In this document: piece after piece, positions 5,963 to 61,695 of the stretch
Layout of the letters: each line of letters begins with the position of its first letter
Numbering within the stretch: position 1 is the first letter of the stretch
IMG/VR virus record: IMGVR_UViG_3300020048_000118
Length of the DNA: 64,000 nt
Source of the DNA: an uncultured virus (IMG/VR IMGVR_UViG_3300020048_000118)
Taxonomy: Duplodnaviria; Heunggongvirae; Uroviricota; Caudoviricetes; Crassvirales
Strand: one strand, 5' to 3'
Position numbers and translations under genes: made by a program
The notes under the pieces: model-generated
Databases searched by the model: none
The model's input: the letters and a program-made list of their open reading frames with translations, nothing else
What the model was told of the DNA's origin: nothing

Positions 5963-7212
5963 TGGAAAATAAAATCACATTAAGACCATACCAGCAGGAC
6001 ATAGTGGAAAAAACTTGCAAATTATTGAGGGGAGCCCCTCGTTTTGCATATCTTTCCATGGAAGTTAGGACGGGCAAGACCTTGACGGCCTTGTCTGCCC
6101 TTGACTGTGTCGGTGACATATCCACAGTTCTATTTGTCACCAAGAAGAAGGCCATCACTGGTATTCAGAAAGACTACAAGGCATTGGCCCCATCTTACAG
6201 CTGCGAGTTTATCAACTACGAGAGCTTGCATAAGATAGACATTGAAAAGATAGACGCAGTTATATTTGACGAGGCACACAGCATGGGAGCATTTCCTAAG
6301 CCATCAAATAGAACGTTGCAGGCTCGTTATCTGGTTCACAAGCATAACCCTTACGTTATCTTTCTGTCTGGAACACCATCACCGGAGTCATACTCACAGA
6401 TGTACCATCAGATGTGGGTTCTTGGGGACAGGTCTCCATTCTATGAGATTAACTTTTACAAGTGGGCACATGGCTACGTAAAAATATGGGAGCGGATGAT
6501 CAATGGGTTTCGTGTTAACGACTACTCGAATGGAATTAAGGAGAGCATCATGCCTGCGGTACAGCCCTACATGATCAGCTACACACAGTCAGAGGCCGGG
6601 TTCACGTCCAAGGTAAACGAGCACATCCTAAAGGTTACCATGTCTGACATGACGTACAACATTGCTGACAGGCTGAAGCGTGACCTATTGTTTGAGGGAA
6701 AGGATGACGTGATACTTGCGGACACACCGGTAAAGCTGATGCAGAAGTTACACCAGATCTACAGCGGAACTGTCATCTTAGAGTCAGGAAAAGCAATTGT
6801 GCTTGACAAGACCAAGGCTGAGTTTATCAAGGAGCGCTTTAAGGGAAAACGCATAGCGGTGTTCTATAAGTTCCAAGCTGAGCTAGAAAGCTTGTTGTCT
6901 GTATATCAAGAAGATATGACCACCGATTTAGGAAAATTTCATGCAGGTGAGTGTAACAATTTCGCAATACAAATTGTTACCGGGCGTGAGGGGATATCTC
7001 TGAAGGAGGCCGACTACTTAGTCTACTACAACATTGATTTCTCGGCCACGTCTTACTGGCAGAGCCGGGATCGCCTAACTACGATGGACAGGCCGGAGAA
7101 CAATGTGTACTGGATCTTTGCTGAGGGTGGTATCGAGGAGAAAATTTATAAGGTTGTTCAAGGAAAGAAGCCGTACACAGTTTCACACTTTAAGCGTGAT
7201 ATTTTGAAGTAA
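5962..7212 (+). CDS. SF2 (SNF2-like) DNA helicase
   Basis: LRPYQ, RTGKT, FDEAH, LSGTP, GREGISL, QSRDR motifs. Confidence 0.85.
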   Translation: MENKITLRPYQQDIVEKTCKLLRGAPRFAYLSMEVRTGKTLTALSALDCVGDISTVLFVTKKKAITGIQKDYKALAPSYSCEFINYESLHKIDIEKIDAVIFDEAHSMGAFPKPSNRTLQARYLVHKHNPYVIFLSGTPSPESYSQMYHQMWVLGDRSPFYEINFYKWAHGYVKIWERMINGFRVNDYSNGIKESIMPAVQPYMISYTQSEAGFTSKVNEHILKVTMSDMTYNIADRLKRDLLFEGKDDVILADTPVKLMQKLHQIYSGTVILESGKAIVLDKTKAEFIKERFKGKRIAVFYKFQAELESLLSVYQEDMTTDLGKFHAGECNNFAIQIVTGREGISLKEADYLVYYNIDFSATSYWQSRDRLTTMDRPENNVYWIFAEGGIEEKIYKVVQGKKPYTVSHFKRDILK

Positions 7213-7218
7213 AGGTGC

Positions 7219-7226
7219 TATATTTG
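7219..7226 (+). promoter_or_regulatory. Bacteroidota sigma70 -7 element TATATTTG
   Basis: Matches TAnnTTTG, 7 nt before ATG 7234. Confidence 0.65.
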
Positions 7227-7233
7227 CAACCCC

Positions 7234-7494
7234 ATGTTAGAATCTAAGCTGCAATCAAAGATGATCAAGCTTGCTGAGGAAAACGGGTGGTACGTCCTAA
7301 AACTTTTGAGCACTAATAAACCAGGGATCCCCGATCTGTACATGTATCGGGATGGAAGAACTGTCTTTGTTGAGGTCAAGAGAGAGGGAGGTAAAGCCCG
7401 GCCACTGCAAGAGTATCGGATTAAAGAATTAAAAGAGATAGGAGTCGAGGCCTTAGTCTGCGACTCAATTGAAAAATTTAAAGAACTATTATGA
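7234..7494 (+). CDS. VRR-NUC domain nuclease
   Basis: ESKLQ...GIPDL...FVEVKREGGKARPLQ motif. Confidence 0.85.
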   Translation: MLESKLQSKMIKLAEENGWYVLKLLSTNKPGIPDLYMYRDGRTVFVEVKREGGKARPLQEYRIKELKEIGVEALVCDSIEKFKELL

Positions 7495-7895: not shown

Positions 7896-9752
7896 ATGAA
7901 ACTAGAGAAAGAAATACTATCGGATATCGTAATTTGGAGCAAATACGCCCGCTTCGTACCTGAGTTGAACAGAAGAGAGACGTGGACCGAACTTGTTACA
8001 CGCAACAAGGAAATGCACTTGAGAAAGTTTCCTCAGATGACCGCCTTGATCGAGAGAGCTTATGAGTTGGTATATGCCAAGAAGATCCTCCCATCTATGC
8101 GTTCGCTTCAGTTTGGTGGAAGGCCAATCGAGGTAAACAACACTCGTTTGTTTAACTGCTCTTACTTGTCGGTTGACGATTACCGTGCGTTCTCAGAGAC
8201 CATGTTTCTACTTCTTTGCGGAACTGGTGTTGGATACTCAGTACAGTCATTCAACATTGAGAAGCTTCCGGCAATTTCCAAGGGAACCAAGACCCGCAGG
8301 TACTTAGTTGGTGACTCTATCGAGGGTTGGGCTGACGCTGTAAAGGTTTTGATCAAGGGTTACTTAGGCCTTAGCGCCACGGTACCTACGTTTGACTTCC
8401 GTGCGATCAGACCAAAGGGAGAAAGACTTATCACATCTGGTGGTGTTGCCCCAGGTCCTGAGCCATTGAAGATCTGCTTGATGCACATCCAGTCAATCTT
8501 GGACCGCAAGTCTGACGGTGACAGGCTTACATCTGTAGAGTGTCACGACATCATGTGCTTTATCGCAGATGCGGTATTAAGTGGTGGTATCAGACGCAGT
8601 GCGATGATCGCTTTGTTTGACCTTTACGACGAGGACATGCTCACATCTAAGTTCGGCAACTGGTGGGAACTAAACCCACAGCGTGCACGTGCCAATAACT
8701 CTGCTATCCTAAAGCGTGATAGTGTATCTAAAGAGGAGTTCCTTGGTCTATGGAAAAAAATTGAGCTTAGCAATTCTGGTGAGCCCGGTTTTTACTTCAG
8801 CGATAACGAGACCATGGGCACCAACCCCTGCGCTGAGATTGCATTGAACCCGTTCCAGTTCTGTAACTTGGTAGAGGTGAACGCATCTGACATCAAGGAC
8901 CAGGACGACTTGAATGACCGTGTGTACTGGGCCTCTGTTATTGGAACCATGCAGGCAAGCTACACTGACTTCCATTACCTGCGTCCGATCTGGAAAGAGA
9001 CTACGGAGCGCGAGGCATTACTGGGAATCGGGATGACCGGTATCGCTAGTGGTGCTGTGATGAAGATGAACCTTCAGCTGGCCGTTAACCAAGCGATATA
9101 CGCAAACGTGTCTGTGTCTGAGATGATCGGAATCAACCCGGCAGCTCGCATCACGTGCGTGAAGCCATCTGGGACCTCTTCCTTGGTCTTGGGGACTTCG
9201 TCTGGTATCCATGCATGGCACGACGAGTATTACGTCCGCAGGATGCGTATTGGAAAGAATGAGGCGATGTACACGTACCTGTCGATCTACCATCCTGAGA
9301 TGTTGGAGGACGACGTGTTCAAGCCACAGCAGCAAGCTGTCGTGTCTGTTCCGCAGTCTGCACCGGTTGGTGCCATCACTAGGAAGGATGAGACCGCTAT
9401 TGAGTTCTTAGAGCGTGTCAAGTACTTCCACGAGTTCTGGATCACACCTGGACACATGCGTGGAGATAATACACACAACGTGAGTGCTACTGTGACCATG
9501 GGTCAGACCGAGTGGCCAGCAGTTGGAGAGTGGTTATGGGAGAACAAGCAGTTCTTTAACGGACTTTCTTTCTTGCCGGAGGACCTTGGCACTTACGTTC
9601 AGACTCCATTCGAGACCATTACAAAGGAGAAGTACGATCAACTCGTTACAAATCTTAACGCTTTGGATGTCGCAAAGATTGTAGAGATTAGCGACAAGAC
9701 AAATCTCATGGACCAAGCCGCTTGCGCTGGCGGTGCTTGTGAAGTTTCATAG
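7896..9752 (+). CDS. nrdJ: Class II (adenosylcobalamin-dependent) ribonucleotide reductase, monomeric type
   Basis: PSMRSL, FNCS, GGIRRSA, TNPCAEI, CVKPSGT motifs and C-terminal CAGGAC; no beta-subunit gene present. Confidence 0.9.
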   Translation: MKLEKEILSDIVIWSKYARFVPELNRRETWTELVTRNKEMHLRKFPQMTALIERAYELVYAKKILPSMRSLQFGGRPIEVNNTRLFNCSYLSVDDYRAFSETMFLLLCGTGVGYSVQSFNIEKLPAISKGTKTRRYLVGDSIEGWADAVKVLIKGYLGLSATVPTFDFRAIRPKGERLITSGGVAPGPEPLKICLMHIQSILDRKSDGDRLTSVECHDIMCFIADAVLSGGIRRSAMIALFDLYDEDMLTSKFGNWWELNPQRARANNSAILKRDSVSKEEFLGLWKKIELSNSGEPGFYFSDNETMGTNPCAEIALNPFQFCNLVEVNASDIKDQDDLNDRVYWASVIGTMQASYTDFHYLRPIWKETTEREALLGIGMTGIASGAVMKMNLQLAVNQAIYANVSVSEMIGINPAARITCVKPSGTSSLVLGTSSGIHAWHDEYYVRRMRIGKNEAMYTYLSIYHPEMLEDDVFKPQQQAVVSVPQSAPVGAITRKDETAIEFLERVKYFHEFWITPGHMRGDNTHNVSATVTMGQTEWPAVGEWLWENKQFFNGLSFLPEDLGTYVQTPFETITKEKYDQLVTNLNALDVAKIVEISDKTNLMDQAACAGGACEVS

Positions 9753-10351
9753 TCCAGTTTTTATGTAAATAAACTGGACATTACTCGGTAATTATCCGTA
9801 TAACCTGCCAAAACTTGACAACAAAACGAGTTTTGGCGGAATATACGTTCATTAGTGCAGCAAAATGCATATAATGATGTATAAATCAGACAAATTATAC
9901 CCGAACGCATATAAAGTGTCTTATATAGCACAAATTCGTACCCTTTTGGGTGTCTTAAAGGACATTATTGTACAATAATTGCACATTATAATGGTTAAAT
10001 GTGACCAAAATAGCACAAATTGCACATTATAATGGTTATTTTTCACAAAAATGGCAAATAAGGATTTTGCACAAGGTATTGCTTTTCGCTACTTTGTGCA
10101 TATATTTGCATCGAAAGTCCCCGCCTGCATACCGTAAGATCTGCTCGTGGGGCTTTTTCTTTTTTCCCCGAACTTTTCCCCGAACTTTTCCCCGAACTAT
10201 AATGCGGCAGAATTACTCACAATTGCCAGTAAATAGAAATAGTGGCAAATGTTTGCGTACAATTTGTTGATAACTCAGGACATAGTCTGATTATCTTTGC
10301 CTTGTTCATATCTCGTTGGGTAACATTGGGGTTTGGAATTTTCCGGCCCCA
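9752..10351. repeat. Non-coding array of many different short inverted repeats/palindromes plus short direct and tandem repeats
   Basis: e.g. GTCCAGTTT-N10-AAACTGGAC (9752-9779), perfect ATTATTGTACAATAAT (9964-9979), 21-nt direct repeat AATTGCACATTATAATGGTTA (9977, 10018), (TTTTCCCCGAAC)x3 (10162-10197). Confidence 0.8.
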
Positions 10352-10365
10352 TTGTTTTAAATACC

Positions 10366-10551
10366 ATGAAACCAGAACATAAAAACATATCTAATTACGT
10401 CAACTCGGTTATGGATGAGTTGAACAGCCTGTCTACAGACCTCTACGAGGCTATGATGGACCAGGAAAACAAGGAAGTGAAGAAGATTGTTGAGGCTATG
10501 ATACCTTTGTTAAAGGATATTCAAGCGACCCACACAAATGAAATCATATAA
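10366..10551 (+). CDS. Hypothetical helical protein
   Basis: ATG 10366 after TATCTTTG (10292-10299); overlaps next gene. Confidence 0.6.
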   Translation: MKPEHKNISNYVNSVMDELNSLSTDLYEAMMDQENKEVKKIVEAMIPLLKDIQATHTNEII

Positions 10552-11650
10552 ACAAGAGGCTGTTGAGCTTTTTGCCGAAGGCAAACTCAATAAGACCCAG
10601 ATTGCTAAGTCCCTAAAGGACAAGTACAATCTGCCGATGTCTGAAGAGACAGTGAGGAAAGAGGTATGCAGACAAATCACCAAGCACAGAGCCTTGGTTG
10701 AAGAGTGCAACGTAATAGGAGTTCCCGTTGACAAGGTAAAGTATTACTGGCACAAGGGAAAGAACTTCTCTATGAACGTAAAGGGAGACGCTGCCCCATC
10801 TTACGAGGAGATCAGAGATGATATCATCGATCAGATGAAGTCTTACTCTCCGCAATACCAACACATCCACAGAAGTCAAAGTAAGGACGGGCACCTACTA
10901 GTGATCGATCCTGCAGACATTCACATTGGAAAGCTCGCTAGCTCTTTTGAGACAGGCGAGGACTACAATAACCAAATTGCTGTCCAAAGAGTCAGAGAGG
11001 GAGTCAAGGGAATCCTAGACAAGACCGCTGGATTCAATATTGATAAGATCTTATTTATTGCTGGAAACGATATCCTGCACATCGACACGCCAAGGAGGAC
11101 CACTACGTCTGGTACGTTTCAGGACACCGATGGAATGTGGTACGATAACTTCTTGATCGCCAAGCAGCTTTACATTGAGATACTCGAGATGCTGGTAACG
11201 GTTGCAGATGTACACTTCTGCTTCAATCCGTCTAACCACGATTACACTAATGGATTCTTTTTGGCCGACACGATTCAGTCATGGTTCTCAAAGTGCGATA
11301 ACATTACCTTCGACTGCTCTATAGCACACAGAAAGTATTACACGTACGGTACCAATATGATTGGATCTACACATGGAGATGGTGCCAAGGCACAGGACTT
11401 GCCATTGCTTATGGCTCAAGAGTCACCGATGTCATGGTCACAGACCAAGCATCGCTATGTGTATACACACCACGTACACCACAAGACGTCTAAGGACTAC
11501 ATCGGTGTCACTGTGGAGAGTCTTCGATCACCGTCTGGAACAGATAGCTGGCACCACAGAAATGGTTACACCGGCTCACCCAAGGCGGTGGAAGGCTTCC
11601 TCCACCACCCCGAGCACGGGCAGGTCGCTAGAATCACTCACTTGTTCTAG
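10538..11650 (+). CDS. Calcineurin-like metallophosphoesterase with N-terminal HTH-like region
   Basis: DIHIG, GND, SNHD, HGD, HHVHH metal-binding motifs. Confidence 0.8.
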   Translation: MKSYKQEAVELFAEGKLNKTQIAKSLKDKYNLPMSEETVRKEVCRQITKHRALVEECNVIGVPVDKVKYYWHKGKNFSMNVKGDAAPSYEEIRDDIIDQMKSYSPQYQHIHRSQSKDGHLLVIDPADIHIGKLASSFETGEDYNNQIAVQRVREGVKGILDKTAGFNIDKILFIAGNDILHIDTPRRTTTSGTFQDTDGMWYDNFLIAKQLYIEILEMLVTVADVHFCFNPSNHDYTNGFFLADTIQSWFSKCDNITFDCSIAHRKYYTYGTNMIGSTHGDGAKAQDLPLLMAQESPMSWSQTKHRYVYTHHVHHKTSKDYIGVTVESLRSPSGTDSWHHRNGYTGSPKAVEGFLHHPEHGQVARITHLF

Positions 11651-57007: not shown

Positions 57008-57206
57008 CGCCGTGGCCAGCGCGTCTATCGTAGTATACGATAGACTCACTCGCTATGTCAGATACAACATCCCCGCCCACGTGTACTACGTGGGCCTTGC
57101 CGTACCTGAGCTCGTTCTCATCGTCGTTTGTCATGATCAGACCTGACTGAGACTTGGTCTCCTCAAATATCGGATCAATCACGATGTACTTTCCTATAGC
57201 TCTCAT
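56943..57206 (-). CDS. groES: Co-chaperonin GroES
   Basis: IVIDP...TKSQSGLIM...VVHVG...YHIILERDVVLV; coupled to groEL. Confidence 0.8.
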   Translation of the reverse strand: MRAIGKYIVIDPIFEETKSQSGLIMTNDDENELRYGKAHVVHVGGDVVSDIASESIVYYDRRAGHGVRIQSRQYHIILERDVVLVLD

Positions 57207-58774
57207 TTTGCTCTTACGTTAGTAATGATACAGTTGGTGCTCAAGATCGTTGTTGCAACGCTGACAGCGTTCTCCAGAGCACTCTTGGTAACCTTTAGCG
57301 GGTCGATGATGCCCATCTCGATCATATTTCCTACAACACCCTCTTTCACGTCGAAGCCGTAACCGAAACTATTTTGATAGTTTAGGGCAATGTCACCCTT
57401 TACCTCGTTCGGGTCATACCCGCCGTTCTCTAGGATCGTGTTGAATGGCTGCTGCAGTGCGTACTTGATGATGCTCTTAGCTGTAGAGCATCCGCAGATC
57501 TCACCGGCTATGTTCAGCAAAGCAATACCACCACCAGGCAGAATTCCGCCCTCCATCGCTGCCTTGGTCGCATACACTGCGTCCTCGACACGGTCCCTCT
57601 TCTCCTTCATCTCGACATCGCTCTGCGCTCCGACGTAGATAACGCCAACGCCGCCCGCAAGGTTAGCGAGCCTCTCCTCCAAGAACTTCTTCAGTCCCTC
57701 GTTGGTAGCCTCTGCCAAGTTATTGCGGATGCCCTCAATCCTCATCGATAGATCGTCAGACAGATCGTTGTCGGTGATAATGATCGTAGACTCCTTTCCG
57801 ACCACCACCTTCTGGGCATGGCCCAGGTCGGTGAATGATACAAGTCCTAAATTGTCTCCGGTTCCGTCAGAGATGAATCGTGCTCCGGTAGCGGCAGCGA
57901 TGTCCTCCATGATCTCGGAACGCATCTGCCCGAAGCTCGGTGGAACGATGGCGCATGCTTTGATCACACCCTTGAGCCTGTTAAGGTTGAGTGAGTTCAG
58001 TGCGTTCTCCGACATCTCGGCGATAATAAGTATGCTCTTTCCGCTCTGCACCACTGGTGCCAAAAGGTGCTCGATATTGTTCAATGACGTGATCTCCTGG
58101 TCAGAGATTAAGATGTAACAGTCCTCTAGGATCGCCTCGTTCTTCTTCTGGTCCGTCACGAAGTACTTTGACATCCATCCGCGCCCAAGCTTCATGCCAG
58201 ATACCACCTCAGAGTAAGTCTTTGAGCTTTGAGACGTCTCAACAGTTACCACACCGTCTTTACCGACCATGCTGTAAGCGTCTGAAATGATCTGCCCTAG
58301 TTCTGGGTCATTGTTGGCGGAGATCGTGGCTACAGAGGCCATAGAATCGTCTGTAACGGGGATAGCCATGCTGTCCAATGCCTGTGCAACTGACAGTGCT
58401 AGCTCTTTTACCTCTCTCAACACCTTTGTTGGGTTGTCCTCGGCCTTCATAAACTGCTGTGAGCCATGAATCAGACCCTGTGTTAGCACAATCGAGGTAG
58501 TGGTACCGTCACCAGCAGCTGTTGCCGTCTTCTCGGATGCCTCTTTTACCATTTGTACCGCAAGGTTCTGCGTTGGGTCGTCCAAAACAATGGACCTTGC
58601 AACACTTACACCGTCTTTTGTGATGTGGATACCGTGTGTGTACTGGTCTGACTCGATCAGAACGGTCTGTCCACGTGCACCCAAGGTGCTCTTGACGGCA
58701 TTTGCTATAATGTCTATACCAGACACTAGCTTTTCACGGGCCTCGGCCCCAAATTCAACTTGTTTAACGATCAT
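57203..58774 (-). CDS. groEL: Chaperonin GroEL
   Basis: VKSTLGARG, ITKDGVSVA, AGDGTTT, ISANND, GGGIAL, GIIDP; lacks GGM tail; start reassigned to 58774. Confidence 0.95.
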   Translation of the reverse strand: MIVKQVEFGAEAREKLVSGIDIIANAVKSTLGARGQTVLIESDQYTHGIHITKDGVSVARSIVLDDPTQNLAVQMVKEASEKTATAAGDGTTTSIVLTQGLIHGSQQFMKAEDNPTKVLREVKELALSVAQALDSMAIPVTDDSMASVATISANNDPELGQIISDAYSMVGKDGVVTVETSQSSKTYSEVVSGMKLGRGWMSKYFVTDQKKNEAILEDCYILISDQEITSLNNIEHLLAPVVQSGKSILIIAEMSENALNSLNLNRLKGVIKACAIVPPSFGQMRSEIMEDIAAATGARFISDGTGDNLGLVSFTDLGHAQKVVVGKESTIIITDNDLSDDLSMRIEGIRNNLAEATNEGLKKFLEERLANLAGGVGVIYVGAQSDVEMKEKRDRVEDAVYATKAAMEGGILPGGGIALLNIAGEICGCSTAKSIIKYALQQPFNTILENGGYDPNEVKGDIALNYQNSFGYGFDVKEGVVGNMIEMGIIDPLKVTKSALENAVSVATTILSTNCIITNVRAK

Positions 58775-58802
58775 ATTTGATTTAATTTGTGCAAATATAA
58801 AC

Positions 58803-58827
58803 AAAAAAGGGACCATTGGCCCCCTTT
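58803..58827 (-). terminator. Intrinsic terminator abutting groEL promoter
   Basis: GGGGGCC-AAT-GGTCCCT stem plus T-run, then TATATTTG (58792-58799). Confidence 0.7.
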
Positions 58828-58846
58828 CTGTCAAATTGTCGTAAAA

Positions 58847-61653: not shown

Positions 61654-61663
61654 CGAAAATAAA

Positions 61664-61695
61664 TTTGCATAATACGTATATTATAACTAACATTG
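61664..61695 (+). promoter_or_regulatory. Early promoter P2: TTTG-N20-TAACATTG
   Basis: Same architecture as P1. Confidence 0.7.

Follow-up and report, generated by a model that had tools for sequence, protein, structure and literature searches.

The window analysed here, 64,000 nucleotides (nt) of DNA from an uncultured virus of the Crassvirales (IMG/VR record IMGVR_UViG_3300020048_000118), contains a gap of 613 nt (positions 9753-10365) between the stop codon of a ribonucleotide reductase (RNR) gene and the ATG of a 61-amino-acid (aa) open reading frame (ORF). With little more than even confidence, we read this gap as a modular non-coding locus of a phage using Bacteroidota-type promoters, in which two orphan copies of host abortive infection (Abi) regulatory elements may serve as decoys. 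One is a DNA dyad, hp1, which has the sequence of the presumptive operator of the abiEi-abiEii type IV toxin-antitoxin operon. The other, absent from the dyads listed in a preliminary description of this DNA, acts at the RNA level if it acts as proposed, and is an orphan hairpin of the type that forms the leader or antitoxin of abiF. The preliminary description had taken the region for an array of a dozen or more unrelated, captured host operators that titrate host regulators. The gap is not such an array: it holds one operator look-alike and one antitoxin-RNA look-alike in an otherwise ordinary regulatory gap. The two elements are as follows.

9752-9779, unstranded: hp1 dyad, GTCCAGTTT-N10-AAACTGGAC, present once in the window, where it overlaps the stop codon of the RNR gene.
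10113-10165, plus strand: orphan hairpin RNA, AbiF-leader/antitoxin-like; core at 10127-10145, U-run at the end.

The hp1 dyad and the AbiE operator

When the spacer was allowed to vary from 8 to 12 nt, the hp1 pattern was found in 12 of 401 evenly sampled Bacteroidota genomes, one copy each and always with a spacer of 10, against 1 of 401 for a reversed-pattern control. Ten of these twelve dyads stand 30-45 nt ahead of a gene for AbiEi (241-254 aa; PADLOC E 1e-54 to 1e-60; Pfam DUF6088), and AbiEii comes next in nine of those ten loci (PADLOC E 1e-84; Pfam PF08843); the two remaining dyads (loci L433 and L440) are not linked to abiE. A strict TAnnTTTG, the -7 box of Bacteroidota promoters, begins 7-8 nt past the dyad in six of the twelve bacterial copies, so that the dyad covers the -33 region of the abiE promoter. 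In S. agalactiae, AbiEi is described as an autorepressor of the winged-helix type whose binding sites are inverted repeats across its own promoter; comparable repeats are described ahead of other abiE loci (PMC3985639). The Bacteroidota dyad resembles the operator described there in being an inverted repeat over the -35/-33 region just upstream of abiEi; it differs from the streptococcal repeats IR1 and IR2 in sequence and spacing, and the phage copy has no promoter. By analogy, AbiEi would be expected to bind at hp1, which we infer to be an orphan copy of the presumptive AbiEi operator of Bacteroidota abiEi-abiEii operons.

The window copy matches the abiEi-abiEii inverted repeat letter for letter, so that the idea of a captured host operator fits the dyad at 9752; for the approximately 12 others the searches made here lent it no support. 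Identical in sequence, the window copy is nevertheless an orphan, without promoter or abiE operon: no -7 box follows the dyad, and the window encodes no abiE gene (best tblastn E 0.35). The pattern is widespread among viruses, occurring in at least 120 viral stretches, with 107 distinct contexts among the matches listed and with many versions of the spacer, which is 80% A/T. Only 2 of the 120 listed viral copies are followed by a -7 box, compared with 6 of 12 bacterial copies, and AbiEi adjoins the dyad in a single one of these 120 stretches (tblastn). A hidden Markov model (HMM) of AbiEi matched one of 74 ORF fragments adjoining viral hp1, a test that has power, since a fragment of 73 aa still scored E 2e-23. 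Viral copies are often found at gene or tRNA ends. Some of the ORF fragments beside them (L324, L344, L345, L354, L364 and L390) gave weak matches to type II restriction enzymes (E 3e-4 to 3e-3), possibly reflecting HNH-type nuclease motifs.

The relative L019 matches the gap at 98.8% identity over the first 86 nt, although its RNR is only 73% identical. A near-identical gap start beside a diverged RNR implies that this module moves, or is held, independently of its neighbours. The same start, hp1 with the next element, is 98-99% identical in L019 (5861-5946) and L017 (1566-1618), next to RNR proteins that are 73-74% identical.

The benefit of hp1 could fall to either side. As a decoy it would help the phage; as a motif sensed by host AbiE it would help the host, because AbiEi would be drawn to phage DNA, its repression lifted and the toxin freed. 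The latter mechanism has been proposed in a preprint (bioRxiv 10.64898/2026.01.19.700257), and the dyad is far commoner in viral contigs than in the sampled host genomes. However, phages should lose a motif that sets off abortive infection, unless some strong function of its own preserves it, and no such function was identified; hp1, moreover, has a spacer that is free to vary. We regard such a trigger as improbable, and between decoy and trigger the sequence itself does not decide.

The small hairpin RNA and the leader of abiF

The second element lies in a small-RNA cassette (10101-10165) that consists of a predicted promoter, P1, a hairpin and a U-run. The hairpin has a closing stem, a bulged U, a 6-bp stem, GCA/UGC and a 12-nt apex before the U-run, and its predicted fold has an energy of -17.6 kcal/mol (z -3.5). 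A scan for the 19-nt core (10127-10145) as an exact pattern gave at least 120 matching stretches in viruses and 79 in species-representative genomes. Four of these 79 lie in non-Bacteroidota coding sequence and look like chance matches, and another four resemble phage DNA in bins; all others come from Bacteroidota, including Prevotella, Porphyromonas, Algoriphagus, Chitinophaga-labelled bins, Flavobacteriales, Saprospiraceae and others. The bacterial layout does not vary: TAnnTTTG, roughly 7 nt, AACAGUAC, stem, core, stem, UCAUU, U-run and, after 17-31 nt, a start codon. Within 120 nt downstream of the core starts an abiF/Abi2 gene in 53 of the 79 stretches, hsdR in 5 and neither in 21. The downstream Abi proteins match Pfam PF07751 (Abi_2; E 1e-47 to 4e-55) and PADLOC AbiD (E 1e-64 to 8e-70), and the downstream R-subunit proteins match REase_I (E 1e-183). 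Six abiF loci also have hsdR further downstream. The leader stands directly ahead of type I restriction R-subunit genes in L229, L271, L285, L263 and L265, and one contig (L229/L230) carries it before both abiF and hsdR.

Abi proteins linked to the leader match PDB 8vz6_A (E 6e-40 and 2e-37). This structure is described as a Prevotellaceae AbiF (PbAbiF) bound to its cis-encoded antitoxin RNA, AbiFr, with AbiF as a type III toxin (PMC12737573). For C. difficile, an RNA upstream of AbiF is described that possesses a promoter and a terminator of its own, acts to repress abiF and neutralises the toxin in cis as well as in trans (bioRxiv 10.1101/2025.04.15.648962), and the AbiD/F group is elsewhere treated as a protein with a short RNA (PMC13064643). 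The position before abiF, the homology to 8vz6_A and the C. difficile precedent together place the bacterial hairpin where the AbiF antitoxin RNA would be, and we infer that it is this RNA.

A covariance model, R1, was built from 38 distinct bacterial abiF-linked leaders and no phage sequence, which avoids circularity. Its consensus consists of a closing G-C pair, a bulged U, a 7-bp stem, GCA/UGC and a 12-nt apex, and compensatory changes occur at 5 of the 12 predicted pairs of the bacterial leader alignment. Run with filters off, R1 matches the window once, at 10106-10169 and over its full length (52.7 bits, E 1e-10; runner-up 10.7 bits). The alignment accommodates the last bases of the -7 box as well as the U-run without gaps, which points to a whole promoter-leader cassette, cut before the toxin gene; the distance from the -7 box of P1 to the hairpin is the same as in the bacterial abiF leaders. 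The window has no abiF (best tblastn E 1.4), and the next gene is the 61-aa ORF, 200 nt away.

Orphan copies are the rule in viruses: among the 120 viral loci listed, 119 are without abiF, 96 contexts are distinct and 35 loci hold tRNA genes. On 100 of these 120 loci R1 gave 98 matches at E <= 0.01, 47 of them with at least 40 bits. In the resulting alignment, which is fitted to the model, 96.9% of cells pair, compared with 77.4% in shuffles (0 of 500) and, when partners were slid, 28-45%; changes on both sides are seen at seven of the eight outer pairs. About 25 of the 98 viral matches hold the core within a different, longer stem context.

Further observations concern the surroundings of the hairpin. 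Many phage copies carry a companion hairpin (e.g. CCCTAGGGATAGTCTCCCTAGA, then CCGAAAGT) ahead of the core one, as in L107, L121 and L143 and also in L082, L083, L093 and L094; the window has no companion. In L241 and L248, a second promoter-like box and a second leader beginning ACAGTAC, with another apex, lie just downstream of the first hairpin, and a family of such leaders with different loops may exist. One viral contig has a 'freshwater-1' RNA (RF02979, 84 bits) adjoining the hairpin (L101, 471-532), and tRNA genes flank it in others (L099 and L136). Rfam 15 contains no family for the small hairpin RNA.

Only in members of the window's own clade (three loci) do hp1 and the hairpin occur within 400 nt of each other. 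In IMGVR_UViG_3300042387_000824 (18 kb; L362 and L157) hp1 and the core hairpin lie, by contig coordinates, about 0.7 kb apart; the flanks of that hairpin are unlike those in the window, and this contig may represent a second lineage with both elements.

Architecture of the gap and its remaining dyads

The gap is the sole long gene-free stretch of the window. As the preliminary description had noted, the genome is compact, and a greedy ORF map leaves just four other gaps of at least 80 nt (126, 346, 84 and 81 nt). GC content is 0.33-0.41 in the gap and 0.45-0.54 in the flanking genes. The same map places two ORFs inside the gap, at 9761-9931 (minus strand) and 10001-10270 (plus strand); neither matches a Pfam or PHROG family and both are disrupted by indels in relatives, so that a conserved ORF spanning the gap, which the preliminary description had named as an outcome that would speak against it, was ruled out. 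The remaining features of the gap and its borders are as follows.

7896-9752, plus strand: class II (B12-type) RNR gene, left border; phrog_367 (E 1.7e-128), Pfam PF02867 and PF21995.
9784-9798, unstranded: conserved CGG-N7-CCG element (TCGGTAATTATCCG), present wherever hp1 occurs in relatives; missing in L078, L086 and L087.
9805-9839, plus strand: predicted RNA hairpin hp2 at the RNR message's 3' end (CTGCCAAAACT / AGTTTTGGCGG); its TTGACA loop is conserved.
9840-9965, unstranded: variable segment with five of the listed dyads (9842, 9895, 9916, 9940 and 9951).
9977-10056, plus strand: two direct repeats of 39-41 nt, each with CATTATAATG, upstream of P1; candidate regulator sites. Exact 18-mers within them at 9979-9996 and 10020-10037.
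10068-10100, unstranded: dyad TGCACAAGGTA-N11-TACTTTGTGCA, a candidate operator for the small-RNA promoter, lying over the -33 region of P1.
10101-10108, plus strand: -7 box of P1, TATATTTG, of the Bacteroidota TAnnTTTG type; kept in all relatives having the block.
10162-10198, plus strand: TTTTCCCCGAAC, in three tandem copies, where the cargo slot stands empty; two copies in L093.
10188-10256, plus strand: conserved block F, with TTGCCA-N14-TGGCAA; kept in five of six more distant relatives.
10269-10299, plus strand: predicted promoter P2, dyad GATAACTCAG-N8-CTGATTATC over the -7 box TATCTTTG (10292-10299).
10300-10365, plus strand: leader of the next operon, with a predicted hairpin at 10324-10354 (CATTGGGG / CCCCATTG) followed by TTTT; ATG at 10366.
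10366-11650, plus strand: 61-aa ORF (10366-10551) and exonuclease gene, right border; phrog_32863 and phrog_704; syntenic in 11 relatives.

The window is part of a large tailed phage. Its plus strand carries a replication and nucleotide block with a BT4734-type primase, an SNF2 helicase, a VRR-NUC nuclease, a MazG-like pyrophosphatase, the class II RNR and the exonuclease, and a long block on the minus strand encodes terminase, portal and structural proteins, a GroEL-like gene and giant ORFs of 2821, 1964 and 2272 aa. The GroEL-like chaperonin is encoded at 57203-58834 on the minus strand (phrog_5725, E 1.6e-138). A sense TAnnTTTG stands ahead of 16 of the 60 gene starts of the window, where about 2.3 would be expected if sites were uniform and an antisense control gave 3; on this promoter evidence we call the phage Bacteroidota-type. 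Several -7 boxes lie only 5-15 nt 5' of start codons (934-946, 7219-7234, 61660-61665 and others), which suggests that leaders are very short or absent there. The nearest exonuclease homologues include Flavobacterium phages, and near-identical DNA was found in runs labelled as aquatic, freshwater or lake water metagenome. No close DNA relative was found among the deposited phages searched. The window contains no tRNA, and no Rfam family reaches its gathering score in it.

Relatives were collected by an RNR protein search, which gave 77 loci, 11 of them with the same downstream genes, and by a metagenome scan for a conserved 20-mer, which gave six further RNR-to-exonuclease junctions. Gap length among 15 relatives is 258-973 nt. 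The blocks follow a common order: hp1 at the stop codon, hp2, one to three copies of the unit of about 41 nt, block GGATTTTGCACAAGGTATTGCTTTTCGCTACTTTGTGCATATATTTGC ending in the -7 box of P1, the invariant-apex hairpin with its U-run, the cargo slot, block F, P2, the leader hairpin and the ATG. Flanking genes are 56-62% identical at third codon positions, compared with 90-100% identity in several gap blocks; others are replaced or absent in relatives. The segment 9840-9965 and the region upstream of P2 are among the replaced parts.

The cargo slot lies between the small hairpin and block F, and in the window holds only the three TTTTCCCCGAAC units. In relatives it contains tRNA-like genes with insertions (L010 and L005), a 128-aa DUF5856 ORF (L089, L091 and L093) or a 165-aa phrog_29004 ORF on the opposite strand (L080 and L095). 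The tRNA-like genes are approximately 110 nt long (L010 at 6157-6266 and about 6349-6458; L005 at about 6157-6266). One of them attains the Rfam tRNA threshold (39.6 bits), and ARAGORN calls them only with introns allowed, as Arg-CCG with a 29-nt insert and Tyr-GTA with an 18-nt insert. A further tRNA-like element, with acceptor and T arm visible, is present in L001 and L014; no tool calls it. Contigs of a near-identical DNA run terminate and overlap one another at the TTTTCCCCGAAC repeats (window 10197-10220), and several related viral contigs stop inside or just past the RNR gene, so that the gap appears to be an assembly break point.

The dyads listed in the preliminary description are present where it placed them, and their excess over chance proved real. 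Compared with 300 dinucleotide-preserving shuffles, the gap has 22 dyads with exact 6-nt arms and a spacer of at most 20 (6.3 +/- 3.5 in shuffles) and 17 with 9-nt arms and at most one mismatch (3.0 +/- 2.5), each count reached in 0 of 300 shuffles; exact 7-nt arms gave 8 versus 1.7 (5 of 300), and the excess of short-spacer palindromes (6-nt arms, spacer at most 4) was weaker, at 5 versus 1.6 (13 of 300). Gap dyads are thus overall 2-5 times commoner than in shuffled sequence, a fold excess that is inflated because one long dyad is counted several times through overlapping windows. Some of the listed dyads, which had been likened to 14-22-bp regulator sites, have arms of merely 3-6 nt, and they are not all unrelated, since GCACAA/TGCACA and TATAATG words recur. 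An 11-mer check found no noteworthy recurrence of the gap dyads elsewhere in the window.

The dyad at 9807, proposed as an operator, behaves as a plus-strand RNA hairpin (hp2). Three versions of its stem in relatives preserve pairing (AAAAC/GTTTT, ATTAT/GTAAT and CCCACA/TGTGGG), and its non-Watson-Crick pairs are T.G or G.T on the plus strand alone. In five relatives (L081, L084, L085, L088 and L352) the stem is G+C-rich and followed by a T-run. The window's own version, found in only three viral contigs of the same clade, has no T-run, and a terminator scan made no call there, while the stem covaries in relatives. From these patterns, hp2 is likely the 3' hairpin, terminator or 3' stabiliser of the RNR message.

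Also claimed as captured host operators, the dyads at 10068 and 10269 overlap the phage's own predicted promoters P1 and P2, whose -33 elements were read by eye. In L078 and L087 the two arms of the P1 dyad differ by a paired change (GCACAA/TTGTGC to GCGAAA/TTTCGC). The -7 box of P2 is invariant in all 17 relatives, and its upstream part exists in three alternative versions. From their position, both dyads look like operators of the phage's own promoters. The stretch from the -7 box of P2 (10292) through the leader hairpin to the ATG is the most conserved of the gap, the leader showing 6/6 identity across most columns despite the 56-62% identity at third codon positions in the flanking genes.

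The five dyads between 9842 and 9965 lend no support to a sponge, as they are restricted to the closest relatives; the segment that holds them is gapped or unlike in four to six of the six more distant relatives and has no credible match among 301 Bacteroidota genomes searched with the gap by BLAST. In that search, which also covered the 10068 and 10269 dyads (these and the 9842-9965 dyads had no pattern scan of their own), only weak matches were found besides hp1 and the abiF leader, with no credible host counterpart, and the two strongest of them (G189 and G240) fall inside coding sequence. Viral scans of the 9807 dyad, the 16-bp palindrome, the 41-nt unit and block F revealed no spread beyond the clade or above chance. 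The palindrome ATTATTGTACAATAAT had 48 viral matches, including giant-virus bins, which we judged to be at chance level; the 41-nt unit is clade-specific (three viral contigs); and among ten viral contigs with block F, eight were traced to RNR-clade contigs and two were not.

A sponge of many different captured host operators spanning the whole 600 bp, and titrating many regulators as phage DNA amplifies, is quite improbable in the light of these results. It would account for the dyad excess, for the one dyad that equals a host toxin-antitoxin operator, and for the fact that relatives have other sequence with dyads in place of 9840-9965 and of the part upstream of P2. Against this, the search for host operators matched just one of about 13 dyads, next to toxin-antitoxin operons as predicted, and none of the others in the samples searched (301 genomes by BLAST, and the viral scans), although rare operators could be missed with small samples and with variable-spacer dyads that escape BLAST; hp2 behaves as RNA, and two dyads overlap the phage's own promoters. 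We likewise consider it very improbable that the gap is an A/T-rich origin of replication with iterons beside replication genes. Its low GC, its direct repeats (41 nt twice, 12 nt three times) and the adjacent primase, helicase, RNR and exonuclease genes would suit an origin; yet the repeat number varies, one relative with a gap of only 258 nt lacks both P1 and the cargo slot, the GC skew of the region is uninformative and no origin-specific feature was found. DnaA-box-like words noticed by eye were dropped, as they are not conserved in relatives.

More weight is due to a purely ordinary regulatory gap, which we nonetheless regard as unlikely. Here hp1 would be a terminator, or a site of a phage regulator that shares the specificity of AbiEi, and the small hairpin only a terminator or attenuator that hosts and phages exchange and that plays no part in counter-defence. 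Most of the gap is indeed explained by promoters, leaders and a terminator; viral hp1 copies are often at gene or tRNA ends, the small hairpin ends in a U-run and the leader is also found before hsdR. However, terminator stems normally drift, whereas the 18 fixed arm bases of hp1 recur in at least 120 viral stretches, and hp1 was found in 12 of 401 genomes where we estimate roughly one to be expected. Furthermore, the 19-nt apex is kept while the stems covary, and the window encodes no AbiEi-like protein (the tblastn result given above).

Proposed mechanism and relation to known systems

In the modular, decoy-bearing locus that we favour, hp2 would end the RNR message, P1 would drive a tiny RNA, followed by the cargo slot, and P2 with its structured leader would drive the next operon. 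The P1 cassette would reproduce the promoter-leader cassette directly before Bacteroidota abiF (Abi2). During infection, P1 would transcribe a look-alike of approximately 50 nt that might bind AbiF in trans as a surrogate antitoxin, keeping its RNase silent once the host antitoxin RNA runs down. Replicating phage DNA would at the same time supply many promoter-less copies of hp1, by which the AbiE regulator could be bound and its control disturbed. More tentatively, and with distinctly less confidence, we suggest that the gap may be a small anti-abortive-infection mimicry island that combines a DNA decoy for AbiEi with a self-expressed RNA decoy for AbiF, each present in more than 100 unrelated viral contigs, with many of the RNA copies situated in tRNA clusters.

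Several points weigh against this interpretation. Titration of an autorepressor would raise toxin and antitoxin together, so that a benefit to the phage is not obvious, and the preprint cited above proposes the opposite, that viral DNA sequestering AbiEi activates the toxin. The leader found before hsdR in five loci may be a general leader of defence genes and not a ligand specific to AbiF, and the identity of the bacterial leader hairpin with the AbiFr of 8VZ6 is unproven. Because the core was the query, exact-pattern scans force its invariance, and only its flanks are independent evidence. Neither the Rfam abiF family RF03085 nor any other family matched the gap at E <= 10, and RF03085 likewise failed to match five bacterial abiF loci. 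R1 matched none of 150 other sampled Bacteroidota genomes, in line with an element that is rare in hosts; strict filters were applied and few candidates scored, so that this zero says nothing about absence. Finally, a contig from an RNA library covers 10192-10438, with most of block F, whereas no RNA-library contig covered 9753-10191, where hp1 and the small hairpin lie; such libraries can contain DNA.

Mimicry of antitoxins by phages is already known. Pseudo-ToxI of phage PhiTE is reportedly an RNA mimic of a type III antitoxin, ToxI itself being an array of 36-nt repeats processed by the toxin. The hairpin of the window is similar in being a phage-borne RNA look-alike of a host antitoxin RNA with no toxin gene beside it; it differs in being a single hairpin with its own predicted promoter and terminator, and an escape from defence by its means is hypothetical. 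Solitary repeat-like RNAs of phages, the RNA anti-CRISPRs (Racr), offer another parallel, being orphan copies, encoded by phages, of an RNA that partners a host defence nuclease. The presumed target here would be a toxin-antitoxin RNase and not a CRISPR effector. Racr are mentioned in PMC12737573, where AbiF is also described as the ancestor of Cas13.

With AbiF and AbiFr, and with the C. difficile pair AbiF-RCd22, the likeness is closer. The bacterial counterparts of the hairpin lie between a promoter and abiF and end in a terminator, as is described for RCd22; the proteins downstream are homologous to 8vz6_A, and the fold is a hairpin with a conserved unpaired part. The window differs in that the RNA cassette is without abiF, consists of a single hairpin instead of two motifs and has no RF03085 match at E <= 10. 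Highly transcribed long intergenic regions have been described for the crAss-like phage phi14:2 (bioRxiv 10.1101/2020.03.07.982082), a large phage with long non-coding gaps and, as is likely for ours, a Bacteroidota host; promoters of the host type are described there as often preceding tRNA genes. One paper lists an Rfam abiF match in a cyanophage, uninterpreted. Our literature search found no phage countermeasure to AbiF or AbiE; the primary PbAbiF paper, which may bear on this point, lay outside that search.

If correct, the proposed function of the hairpin would constitute the first counter-defence against the AbiF/Abi2 family, and hp1 would be the first DNA-operator decoy known from nature to counter a type IV toxin-antitoxin system. 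The presence in many phages of an exact look-alike of the AbiEi operator makes the sequestration of AbiEi by viral DNA directly testable, whichever side gains. For annotation, the analysis adds a recurrent small-RNA family, absent from Rfam 15, in the gene-free gaps and tRNA clusters of Bacteroidota phages.

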